A program made the position numbers and the translations under genes. Positions 20,029 to 62,570 of a stretch of DNA of 64,000 nt are shown here, piece after piece. Position 1 is the stretch's first letter, and the number at the start of each line of letters is the position of its first letter. Origin of the DNA: Vicugna vicugna (lineage: Eukaryota); the NCBI GenBank assembly GCA_013265495.1, contig MU057701.1, forward strand, positions 1,426,001-1,490,000, written 5' to 3'. The notes under the pieces were generated by a model that worked only from the letters and a program-made list of their open reading frames with translations, was not told the DNA's origin and did no database searches.

Positions 20029-21520
20029 TGGGTGCAGGTCTGGTGTTCCCAGTATTAGGAAATGGAGCTCAAGGTTTGGGGTTCTTGGCTGCCATCTGGG
20101 CTGTGGCACTGGCCTTCCCTGGTGTCACAGCTTCTGCTCTCTGCCTGCCTGGGCCCACTCCACCGTCAAGTGTCCAGACTGCCTGCTGCAAAGCTCTAAC
20201 TCGGCAAAGGAAACTGGAAGAATCATCAGTGGATCCAGAGATTACAGGTGACTCACACCATGGCTTTCCTACCAGTTTTTTGTGGCAGCAAAAGAGCACA
20301 TGAAGAACAAAGCTGCACAACTGAAAGGCTTCCCCTTGCCTCCTGACGCCTCCAAAGCTTTTCCTCAAGCAGCCAGTGCAGTGGAATGTTCTCTCACTTA
20401 TAGCCTGTGACGTAGCCCTCCACGTGCAGAGAATGTCACTGTGGTTACCTGTGTGGAGGGTGGGAATGGAATTTTGTGAACTGTTCCTTTGGTGATAAAG
20501 ACATATGCATAGCAACCTACTCTTAGTAAATCGTGCGTTTTGGAAGCAACTAGCCATAGAACATACACTCGAACACTGTCAGCTGGGGCGGGGAACAGTG
20601 GGATTCACGTGAACACTGGGCAAAGCCATGAGATCAAACCATCCCCTGCCTTTTACCAACAAGCTAAATCACCTGGTTTCTAACTTATCTCAAATGTTTT
20701 CCTGAGACAAGCGTATGTGAAAATGTCAAACACTGCACATGACTGGAGTGGGGCCAGAAAGCCAGAGCCACTGTCTTTTTCCAGCTGGCACCTCCTGTGT
20801 GCTCTGGGAAGCTTTATGTAGGCATCTTAAATGCTTTAACTGGTTTGGGATGTTTTGCAAATTTCCTTTTCTGATGGCCAAAATGGAGAACTGCTCTTTA
20901 ACATCTTGAGTCTAGACCAAAACTTTGCTCAACATCAAACACTAAAGATCTCAAAATTAATGTGACACTTAACATTGCCAACTTTATTTTGTGCGTTTGT
21001 GTCAGAATATTTAGTTTACAAGTTTCAAGTCTCCCTCAAATTGCATAATTTGCTTTGAGAAGTACACTTAAGATACAATTTTTAAAAATTAAAACTGCGT
21101 TCAACAAACTTTATCTTGGGTAACTTTGGACAACTTACATCTGTGGACAAAGCTAATAGTTTTTTAAACAGCACCTTGCCTGAACATGACTTTAAAGAAG
21201 TTAATATATTGAAAAAATATTTGAACCCTTACTTGATTACTTTAATTGCACCATTAAAATATGACCTAAATTATTGGATCATTCCAGTTGGTGTACTGTT
21301 CTAATTTCTCATTGTGTAGGCCGATTTGCCTGTCAGTCCGCATGTCTTGTTAATTGGTCTTACTTTTGTGCAATAACTATAAAGGCAAAGGACTAGATGC
21401 ACTACTGTGTAGCGATTACACGACTGTATCCTGTTGCACTTAATCAAATAGTATGTGGGGATTTACAATCTTTACAAGCTTGCATTGTTTCACAAAATAA
21501 AGATCTCATGTCAAATACTA
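20029..21520 (+). other. TEX2: TEX2 3' UTR (~1.5 kb; end approximate)
   Basis: Follows the stop codon, AU-rich distal half, ends after AATAAA at 21496-21501. Confidence 0.75.
21496..21501 (+). terminator. TEX2: TEX2 polyadenylation signal AATAAA
   Basis: Canonical hexamer followed by U/GU-rich sequence (gttatttgtactt) about 35 nt downstream. Confidence 0.75.
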
Positions 21521-22146
21521 GATAAGCATCTAAGTTATTTGTACTTAATCCTTAGATAACAGGGACAGGATAAACTGGGTACAGGGTGCCTGGGCCCTCA
21601 GCTGCCAATAGCTGCCTGTTTCTTCGGTGATCACTGTACCTGTCCTAAGGGTCCCAAGGTAGTCCTCACCACAGATGATATAAAGTAGGCAGTATTAATC
21701 CTCAGTTCATATTTTAAGAAGTTCTGCTCCTGAGCTGGAATTTATACCAATCACCTACTAATTCTAACTCAGGGCCCCCTCCAGTTACTGACACCAAAGC
21801 AGTTAGACATGGTGCTTGTGAATACTTTGCCCTTCAGCACATTTCACCTAAGCCCAAGAGAGATCACTGTCGCCTAGATCTGGACTAAGGAGTGATTGTG
21901 CGTTTCTTTAGCGCCTATGTTGTGCCCCGCAATGCACATCTAACTCACCTTCACAAAACCCTGCTGTGAGCTATCTGGGGCACATCCAAAGCAGTTGGCC
22001 CTAAATGTAGGCCACAGCCGGATTCTCATCTCTCCTCCCTGAGGACACCATCCACGCCGCACCTGACTGAACGACGTCTCCCTTAAGTTTTTAACCCTTG
22101 TTTTGGGGGTTCTTTACAGGCCCCCACCCCCAACAGTTCGGTGCCG

Positions 22147-22280
22147 CCGTGTGCCTCGCGGTTAAAAGGGCCGCCGCTGCGGGGGCAGACGGCCCCAGTT
22201 ATGCGCGAGTGCGTGCTCTAGCGCTGCTGCCTGACCCCCGGCGCCACGCGCAGGCGCAGCGAGGGCTCAAAGGCAGCGCA
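22147..22280 (-). ncRNA. SNORA50C: Box H/ACA snoRNA SNORA50C (SNORA76/ACA62 family), 18S rRNA pseudouridylation guide
   Basis: Minus strand shows two hairpins, H box AGAGCA (22219-22214) and ACA three nt from the 3' end (22152-22150). Pocket arms CTTTGAG and CATAACTG...TTTAA are complementary to 18S rRNA CTCAAAG and TTAAA-tc-AGTTATG (U34/U105 region). Position next to SNORD104 fits synteny. Confidence 0.9.
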
Positions 22281-22302
22281 TCGCGACAAAGAACACAAGA
22301 TA

Positions 22303-22639
22303 CTAGCGCTGCGGTCAAACCGTTTTATTTAGATTCGGGGGAGGGTCGAAGGGCTGGAAGAACAAGTAGATCTGACGTCCTCGTCCGGCCCGGGATCTGC
22401 AAGAACGAAAGCAGTGGACTGTAAGTGTGCCCGCAGGACCGCTCCCTTCCCACCGCCACCGCCACCGCCGCAGCCAGGCTCAGACTCTAGTTCGCATCAC
22501 CCTCGTCAGCAGTCTAACACGTGCTTTAATTAGATGTCATCACCGCTGGCCACCCGTCCTCCGCTCGGCTCCCAGGTCCCAAGTCCCGGAACAGACAAAC
22601 TCACCTCTCCAGCTTCACACTCGCTGAAAGGAAAAGGAA
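22303..22639 (-). ncRNA. SNHG25: Small snoRNA host gene (SNHG25-like): exon 1 ~22637-22605, intron 22604-22397 containing SNORD104, exon 2 22396-~22303
   Basis: 5'TOP tract TTCCTTTTCCTTTC (22639-22626), donor GAG|GTGAGT, acceptor ctttcgttcttgcag, AATAAA (22329-22324) with GU-rich downstream element; SNORD104 ends ~80 nt before the 3' splice site, typical for C/D snoRNAs. Confidence 0.8.
22475..22549 (-). ncRNA. SNORD104: Box C/D snoRNA SNORD104 (U104), 28S rRNA 2'-O-methylation guide
   Basis: C box GTGATGA (22543-22537), D box CTGA (22483-22480), internal D' CTGA and C' GTGATGC. Plus-strand agtctaacacgtgc (22511-22524) is the 28S rRNA sense sequence, so the RNA carries the antisense guide. 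Terminal ccag/ctgg stem. Confidence 0.93.
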
Positions 22640-43671: not shown

Positions 43672-43808
43672 GGTGGGGAGAGTATAGCTCAAAGTGGTAG
43701 AGCGTATGCTTGGCATCCACAAGGCCCTGGGTTCAATCCCCAGTACCTCCTCTTAAATAAATAAGTAAACCTAATTACCTGCCCCATAAAAATAAATTAA
43801 TTTAAAAA
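43672..43808 (+). mobile_element. tRNA-Ala-derived camelid SINE (vic-1 type)
   Basis: A and B boxes (tagctcaaagtgg, gggttcaatccc), aaacctaattacc body, degenerate TSD aataatttctgtcccctc / aatgatatctgtcccttc. Confidence 0.85.
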
Positions 43809-62439: not shown

Positions 62440-62570
62440 GGGGGAGAGTATAGCTCAGTGGTAGAGTGTGTGCTTAGCATGCACAAGGTTCTGAGTTCAA
62501 TCCCCAGTGCCTCTGTTAAAAAACAAATAAATTAATAAACCTAATTACCTCCCCACACACACAAAAAAAG
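62440..62570 (+). mobile_element. tRNA-Ala-derived camelid SINE (vic-1 type) with perfect 16-bp TSD
   Basis: TSD aaaaagaaatgtatta at 62424-62439 and 62571-62586; A/B boxes; A-rich tail. Confidence 0.9.

Follow-up and report, generated by a model that had tools for sequence, protein, structure and literature searches.

How does a guide RNA that lies behind the poly(A) signal of its own host gene, outside any intron, acquire its 5' end? The question is raised by a locus of the vicuña (Vicugna vicugna) genome that lies in a stretch of 64,000 nucleotides (nt) of contig MU057701.1 (assembly GCA_013265495.1, positions 1,426,001 to 1,490,000 of the forward strand; this whole stretch is called the window below, and all positions are counted from its first letter). 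Its minus strand carries a host gene of the SNHG25 type: two exons, the box C/D small nucleolar RNA (snoRNA) SNORD104 in the intron between them, and the box H/ACA snoRNA SNORA50C behind the AATAAA of exon 2. This gene is the orthologue of human SNHG25, the U104/ACA62 host gene. We propose that its two guides are made by two different routes. SNORD104 would be freed from the spliced intron, and for SNORA50C the best-supported mechanism, which we judge about equally likely to be right or wrong, is that the cut made at the host's poly(A) site is the entry to the snoRNA 5' end.

The two snoRNAs and the exons around them were located as follows: The Rfam covariance model of the SNORA76 family (RF00598) matches positions 22279-22147 of the minus strand over its full length (1-132) with 126.8 bits (E 8e-22; gathering score 37), with one non-standard pair at the foot of the 3' hairpin. 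The H/ACA hallmarks follow one another in this RNA as a hairpin, an H box AGAGCA (22219-22214; pattern ANANNA), a second hairpin and a box ACA at 22152-22150, 3 nt from the RNA 3' end at 22147. Weber 2006 (PLoS Genet, PMC1687206) lists ACA62 as SNORA76 and places it 177-225 base pairs (bp) behind U104, and the human SNHG25 entry of Migeot 2025 (EMBO Rep, PMC12508059) pairs SNORD104 with SNORA50C; combining the two namings makes SNORA76, ACA62 and SNORA50C the same RNA. SNORD104 (RF00289) lies at 22546-22478 of the minus strand (91.4 bits, gathering score 40), 81 nt before the 3' splice site, and the 198 nt gap between the two snoRNAs falls inside Weber's range. Exon 1 (22640-22605, about 21-36 nt, its 5' end being uncertain) begins in a 5'TOP-like pyrimidine tract, CCTTTTCCTTTC (tract at 22637-22626), and ends in GGAGAG followed by the donor GTGAGT, whose GT is at 22604 and which agrees with the consensus at 8 of 9 positions. 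Intron 1 (22604-22397, 208 nt) ends with the acceptor TTCTTGCAG followed by ATCCCG, and exon 2 runs from 22396 to an inferred proximal cleavage zone at 22318-22310 in today's sequence (its far boundary is thus placed at 22310).

Is SNORA50C then really outside any intron? The first-pass annotation, which was made from the window's letters, had placed this snoRNA just behind its host's poly(A) signal and outside any intron, and both the Rfam match and our own reading of the sequence bear this out. It had also noticed no consensus donor between 22396 and 22280 and no strong acceptor behind the snoRNA. When scored against a 9-position donor consensus, the best of the seven GT sites in 22396-22280 agrees at only 5 of 9 positions, and the AG sites within 300 nt behind the snoRNA have pyrimidine shares of 0.63-0.68 in front of them, compared with 0.79 at the exon 2 acceptor. 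SNORA50C does not qualify as intron-encoded: exon 2 has no usable donor, the downstream acceptors are weak, and spliced retrocopies of the host RNA (below) contain no further exon. It might still be argued that some isoforms join exon 1 or exon 2 to a farther exon and that the guide is recovered from the lariat, since the human gene shows alternative splicing in an intricate pattern (Weber 2006, PMC1687206) and splice signals are present behind the snoRNA, namely a perfect donor at 21948 and one at 22062 that scores 7/9. The poor exon 2 donors and weak acceptors speak against this, as do the lack of a third exon in all 12 spliced retrocopies, the colinearity of one long retrocopy (L015, below) over 1.2 kb, and the classification of the human copy and of the Ensembl-annotated mouse copy as exonic by Migeot 2025 (PMC12508059); we consider such an intron very unlikely.

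The proximal poly(A) signal has the parts expected of a working one. An AATAAA at 22329-22324 of the minus strand is followed by a T/GT-rich downstream element, TATCTTGTGTTCTTTGTC (22302-22285; best 20-nt G+T share 0.80), so that the AAUAAA and the U/GU-rich element of a canonical site lie within about 40 nt, and the first nt of the snoRNA, 22279, lies 45 nt past the hexamer and 5 nt beyond the end of the downstream element; the hexamer, the GU-rich element and the 45 nt spacing are as the first-pass annotation had described them. An AATAAA would be expected by chance 0.0046 times in the 117-nt stretch (local base composition), and a downstream G+T-rich stretch as good as this one is found, by an ad hoc measure, at 10 of the 102 AATAAA on both strands of the window. 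The minus strand from 23000 to 20400 has four canonical hexamers, namely one ATTAAA within SNORD104, the proximal AATAAA, an ATTAAA at 21246, and a distal AATAAA (20988-20983) that lies 1159 nt behind the snoRNA. Nine of 12 retrocopies keep the proximal hexamer intact, as does the human sequence given in Dataset EV1 of PMC12508059, and the hexamer together with the GGTTTGA that follows it is common to the window and this human junction sequence (by eye). This one human sequence, compared by eye, and the text of Weber 2006 make up the cross-species comparison, and a 19-base SNORD104 pattern gave no match in public metagenome contigs and none in public genome contigs.

The above features predict that the proximal site can be used, but has it been? 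We searched the window's own genome for retrocopies, which keep a record of past RNA species; these searches score the best candidates only, so all copy counts are lower bounds. A 117-base exon 2 query matches the window and 12 other places, each over about its first 84 bases, and in all 12 of them exon 1 is joined straight to exon 2 with intron 1 spliced out (11 by script test, L021 by eye). Their 5' ends map to 22640-22625, and likeness to the window is lost at 22318-22310, 6-14 nt past the hexamer, in 11 of the 12 (the alignment of L022 overruns spuriously). An A-rich tail follows in at least 10 of the 12 (printed flanks, by eye), direct repeats of 7-16 nt flank seven of them (script), their identity to the window is 75-90%, and none contains the snoRNA. 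Judged from these sequence features, the 12 spliced copies are processed pseudogenes of a short, spliced and polyadenylated host RNA that was cut at the proximal site. Because they end just past the hexamer and are mostly A-tailed, the proximal poly(A) site was used in the past. The poly(A) tail 10-30 nt past the hexamer that marks a canonical site is seen here indirectly, through the retrocopies and through the poly(A)-tailed expressed sequence tags that Weber 2006 (PMC1687206) reports for the two-exon U104 host gene with its consensus signal. Polyadenylated SNHG25 reads from infected cells, which PMC11092343 mentions, were set aside as evidence of too indirect a kind.

The exact end points of these copies require one qualification. 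Nine of the 12 (by eye; L007-L013 and L021-L025 were compared) show 4-15 nt of C-rich sequence, such as CCCCCCACCCC, that separates GGTTTGACC from the A tail, and if it is counted the copies end about 20-25 nt past the hexamer. In its place today's gene has GCAGCGCTAG (22313-22303, minus strand); from this comparison the source gene seems to have lost about 10 nt where cleavage formerly took place.

A second set of retrocopies begins where the first set is silent, at the snoRNA. RF00598 has five matches in the genome, which are the window gene, one place that scores best as the sister family SNORA50, and three retrocopies. The first of these, L001, matches 22281-22137 (-2 to +10 relative to the snoRNA) and continues into an (ATAA)n tail between 11-nt direct repeats (AAAGGTACACA); L004 matches 22280-22115 (-1 to +32); and L003 matches 22270-22129 by blastn (from nt 10), its limits being about -1 and about +35 by eye, and has an 8-nt direct repeat. 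None of the three carries exon 2 sequence. A fourth copy, L015, is 1.3 kb long and unspliced, and is colinear with 22188-20976 (1336-nt match, 79% identity). Its first 19 nt agree with snoRNA nt 1-19 at 17 of 19 positions; this match was judged by eye, since an internal deletion of about 75 nt that follows it breaks the automatic alignment. L015 ends 7 nt past the distal AATAAA in an A-rich tail, and it defines the unspliced 3' extension (22146-20976) that reaches from the snoRNA to the distal poly(A) site. Neither L004 nor L015 showed clear direct repeats. Because L015 starts at snoRNA nt 1 and ends at the distal AATAAA, there has been a polyadenylated RNA whose 5' end was that of the snoRNA. 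In sum, read as sequence, the retrocopy record points to two separate kinds of RNA, one consisting of exon 1, exon 2 and a poly(A) tail, and one beginning at or near snoRNA nt 1 and extending either slightly or 1.2 kb to the distal poly(A) site. The junction between exon 2 and the snoRNA is present in 0 of the 16 copies (12 spliced, 3 snoRNA and 1 long), and SNORD104 was found nowhere else in the genome, the window copy being its sole match.

These counts bear directly on three models that the first-pass annotation had put forward: (a) that poly(A)-site cleavage creates an uncapped end which is trimmed 5'-3' up to the snoRNA particle, (b) that the H/ACA fold forms the 3' end of a capped host RNA, as in telomerase RNA, and (c) that a ~400-nt RNA is bounded by SNORD104 and SNORA50C. 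Its anatomy of the locus stands, and model (a) fits the retrocopy pattern best, a join of exon 2 to the snoRNA being missing from all 16 copies. Models (b) and (c) found no support, as 0 of 16 copies link exon 2 or SNORD104 to the snoRNA and only a single SNORD104 was found.

Model (b) would require a stable, functional species of about 286 nt made of capped exon 1, exon 2 and SNORA50C, with its 3' end set by the H/ACA fold. Ensembl does put human SNORA50C in the last exon of SNHG25 (according to PMC12508059), and SNHG25 RNA binds DKC1 (Zeng 2022, PMC9276775); against these stand the missing exon 2-snoRNA join, the four copies that start at, or a few nt from, snoRNA nt 1, and the used poly(A) site that separates exon 2 from the snoRNA, and we regard an RNA of this kind as highly improbable. 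Model (c) corresponds to a sno-lncRNA (snoRNA-ended long noncoding RNA), with SNORD104 at the 5' end and SNORA50C at the 3' end. The two snoRNAs do lie 198 nt apart on one precursor, and in S. pombe hybrids of two snoRNAs accumulate when cleavage precedes splicing (PMC12508059). However, intron 1 would have to stay unspliced in such an RNA, whereas all 12 of the spliced-host retrocopies have lost it, and no second SNORD104 copy was found in the genome. By definition, moreover, both snoRNAs of a sno-lncRNA share an intron (Yin 2012, cited in PMC12084880 and PMC12508059), and here that shared intron is absent, a used exon 2 acceptor separating the two; its existence is extremely doubtful. The further idea that the choice of poly(A) site sets the ratio of the two guides is likewise unsupported: the short distance from the site to the snoRNA suggests that the snoRNA is transcribed both when the site is used and when it is passed over.

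The layout, the splicing of intron 1, the past use of both the proximal and the distal site, and the RNA starts at or near snoRNA nt 1 can all be read from the locus and its copies. From them we infer where entry takes place, which enzymes act and in what order, in the following route: The cleavage and polyadenylation machinery would cut about 10-25 nt after the AAUAAA, releasing a very short spliced poly(A)+ RNA of exon 1 plus exon 2 (~120-135 nt). The downstream piece, with its uncapped 5' end, would then be trimmed by about 30 nt by a 5'-3' exonuclease, presumably XRN2, until an H/ACA particle already assembled on SNORA50C halts the enzyme and so fixes the 5' end of the guide. Because the particle would stop the exonuclease, the polymerase would be able to continue for about 1.2 kb to the distal AATAAA, giving a polyadenylated RNA that begins with the snoRNA, that is, one of the type of the SPA long noncoding RNAs (lncRNAs). 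Finally, 3'-5' trimming by way of oligoadenylated intermediates would produce the mature 3' end. Whenever the proximal site is used, a fragment beginning about 30 nt in front of the snoRNA must remain downstream of the cut, and this fragment could be the main source of the guide. Two marks of an SPA-type RNA were found: a used poly(A) site upstream of the snoRNA is recorded by the retrocopies, and an RNA reaching from the snoRNA to a distal poly(A) tail is recorded by one of them, L015.

Several observations weigh against entry at the poly(A) site. The retrocopies tell of poly(A)-site use in the past rather than in the present-day vicuña; they are old (see their identities above), and the poly(A) site has changed since they were made, because today's gene is missing their C-rich stretch. 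Intronic snoRNAs, too, typically leave retrocopies that begin at snoRNA nt 1 (Weber 2006, PMC1687206), and therefore such starts demonstrate 5' trimming and not the place of the entry cut. The T/GT element ends only 5 nt from the snoRNA, where the factors bound to it and the assembly of the particle might compete. Human data weigh in the same direction: degradome ends fall in the loop and the flanks of a stem at the exon junction, DROSHA fCLIP cross-linking is found on the spliced RNA, and nascent long reads contain both snoRNAs (all PMC12508059). Finally, short hairpin RNAs against SNHG25 lowered SNORA50C and not SNORD104, and a "whole length" SNHG25 complementary DNA raised SNORA50C (Zeng 2022, PMC9276775), results that suggest a spliced precursor which still holds the snoRNA.

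These human results belong to a different entry point, which the first-pass annotation did not consider: an RNase III cut in a hairpin at the exon junction. In the model proposed by Migeot 2025 (PMC12508059), read-through transcripts are spliced and the stem-loop at the spliced junction is cut by RNase III, possibly DROSHA, after which a 5'-3' exonuclease would trim the remaining exon 2, including the AAUAAA, up to the snoRNA particle; the short poly(A)+ RNA would be a separate, dead-end product. The window offers material for this. On one precursor it carries a non-intronic snoRNA behind an intronic one, as in Migeot's mixed clusters, and predicted folds contain an imperfect hairpin (22395-22340, minus strand; core GGGC.GGA..AGGACG, an 11-nt loop and a 3' arm) that lies wholly in exon 2 and whose lowest stem, in the minimum-energy fold, pairs with exon 1 at 22610-22605 across the splice junction. 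Sequence near the human "3' cleavage site" is conserved (PMC12508059). By eye, the hairpin core is conserved with pair-keeping changes only, in that two C-to-T changes in its 3' arm relative to the retrocopies give the window two G-U pairs where the copies have G-C. That the core has been kept in the window is a further point against poly(A)-site entry, although the pair-keeping changes are compatible with a structure rather than proof of one.

On the other side, the fold of the spliced exons (-34.1 kcal/mol) is no more stable than those of shuffled sequences (z = +1.7), and the hairpin core is independent of splicing, because it folds from exon 2 alone (-15.7 kcal/mol). Migeot's table gives "NO STRUCTURE" at the junction of the mouse gene (PMC12508059). 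The hairpin route also leaves unexplained why a conserved and used AAUAAA lies between the hairpin and the snoRNA; the main text of PMC12508059 contains no occurrence of AAUAAA, CPSF or XRN2. In the human fold of its Dataset EV1, exon 1 forms the outer stem with the bases that directly follow the hexamer, the 3' foot of this stem lies, by our own count, about 10 nt past the hexamer, and therefore Migeot's "3' cleavage site" could be the poly(A) site itself. We take the hairpin cut to be a serious rival as the entry to the SNORA50C 5' end, although one that is rather less likely than the poly(A) site.

Pairing between exon 1 and the region just behind the poly(A) signal was seen in the window as well. 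Exon 1 positions 22625-22616 are paired with the presumed cleavage zone (22313-22305, minus strand) by 8 pairs in the predicted fold, the best duplex between exon 1 and the poly(A) flank has -14.1 kcal/mol in a separate computation, and the bases directly after the hexamer are paired with exon 1 in the published human fold too (PMC12508059). If these modelled pairs form, they might affect access to the poly(A) site.

The following additional features of the locus were noted. A promoter of SNORA50C's own was considered as the origin of its 5' end and rejected, as the hexamer is only 45 nt away and the human gene has a single major start site (PMC12508059). For the host gene, a TATA-like TTTAAG (22660-22655, minus strand) lies about 25-30 nt before the inferred start site and may serve as its promoter element. 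Sixteen nt behind the snoRNA there is a G5TG5 run (22131-22121, minus strand), which is recognisable in degraded form in L003, L004 and L015. Such a run may act as a pause or auxiliary element, by analogy with G-rich pause sites. The perfect donor mentioned above (AAG followed by GTGAGT, 9/9; 21948-21947, minus strand) lies about 200 nt behind the snoRNA, has no matching strong acceptor nearby and was left unspliced in L015; it may be a U1 site that influences poly(A)-site use.

Among the snoRNA copies, L001 (L001:1490-1660; G000:C10306) is a young type-1 copy with 96.6% identity over 145 nt, and it outscores the window gene on Rfam SNORA76 (133.2 versus 126.8 bits); the window snoRNA differs from both L001 and the family consensus at about 5 positions, and its 3' hairpin foot pair is broken. 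Three other places (L016, L017 and L018) are partial copies of 21258-20957 with 77-84% identity whose ends are not at the distal site; they may stem from an opposite-strand transcript or a repeat, and were left out as uninformative. Farther away, tRNA-like matches at 43678-43751 and 62444-62514 of the window (both plus strand) and at L005:605-671 score 38.7, 44.5 and 31 bits, which barely exceeds the Rfam threshold; several of their pairs are non-standard, and they probably represent tRNA-derived short interspersed elements and not tRNA genes. Pfam gave no match for seven open frames from window positions 1-21600, so the TEX2 neighbour described by Weber is unconfirmed here.

What would entry at the poly(A) site mean? 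The layout itself is already published for the human gene, a literature check having found it described in Weber 2006 (PMC1687206) and Migeot 2025 (PMC12508059), while the retrocopy evidence is new; therefore the value of the present locus lies in the mechanism and in that evidence. We found no paper that ties the SNHG25 poly(A) signal to formation of the SNORA50C 5' end, and the passages on this gene in Weber 2006 and Migeot 2025 do not tie the poly(A) cut to it. As a test case the locus is small and conserved, and it holds two concrete candidates for the place of the entry cut, the poly(A) site and the hairpin; which of them opens the 5' end is a specific and testable matter, and it bears on a gap that the field openly acknowledges. 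Should entry at the poly(A) site prove right, the published hairpin model for human SNHG25 would have to be re-read, and poly(A) sites would also be a means of making functional small RNAs from the downstream product of cleavage. A bolder reading, which we hold tentatively and think somewhat more probably wrong than right, is that AAUAAA and snoRNA together form, in SNHG25, a device conserved among mammals for making an ordinary H/ACA guide from the "waste" fragment of a poly(A) cut, Migeot's "3' cleavage site" being the CPSF73 cut and the snoRNA particle blocking the XRN2 torpedo and so forcing the ~1.2-kb read-through. If true, this RNA would be the first of the SPA type to carry an H/ACA cap, and its making the first 5'-end pathway to be defined for a non-intronic vertebrate snoRNA.

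How do the locus and its copies compare with systems already described? ACA62 lies behind U104 from human to opossum (Weber 2006, PMC1687206). Human SNHG25 resembles the vicuña gene in its two short exons, its intronic SNORD104, the AAUAAA of exon 2 and the H/ACA snoRNA behind it, as well as in a transcription unit that continues to a distal poly(A) site, in human antisense to the 3' untranslated region (UTR) of the neighbouring TEX2 (Weber 2006, PMC1687206), and in the non-intronic class of the snoRNA, which Migeot 2025 (PMC12508059) assigns to a "polycistronic-mixed" cluster. The two genes differ in that vicuña has no C-rich stretch after GGTTTGACC, whereas human has GAACCCAA there. The retrocopies also have published likenesses. 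L001 resembles Weber's snoRT type 1 (PMC1687206) in its mature 5' end, short 3' extension, A-rich tail and direct repeats, with an extension of 10 nt as against the stated range of 0-9; L003 and L004 are like type 2-like snoRTs. L015 is the vicuña genome's counterpart of the long rhesus ACA62 retroposon, which is 1436 bp and reaches the antisense of the TEX2 3' UTR (Weber 2006, PMC1687206), and it differs in being unspliced with an internal deletion.

As to mechanism, the closest systems are the SPA lncRNAs of the Prader-Willi region, where a poly(A) cut is followed by XRN2 trimming to the snoRNA particle (PMC12084880, citing Wu 2016). They share with the vicuña locus the read-through to a distal poly(A) site, and L015 and the rhesus retroposon have exactly the SPA shape. 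They differ in having box C/D caps and in being stable nuclear lncRNAs of 16-34 kb, whereas the vicuña RNA would have an H/ACA cap and a tail of ~1.2 kb, and its presumed end product would be an ordinary guide. The snR107/snoU14 (mamRNA) precursor of S. pombe likewise has a non-intronic snoRNA behind an intronic one, and the 5' end of the non-intronic snoRNA must be freed by a cut; there, however, Pac1 cuts a hairpin at the junction, as was shown experimentally (PMC12508059). A poly(A) site between the snoRNAs is raised in the review file of that paper for the S. pombe locus only, where the authors found no usable poly(A) signal between the two snoRNAs; the vicuña locus has one.

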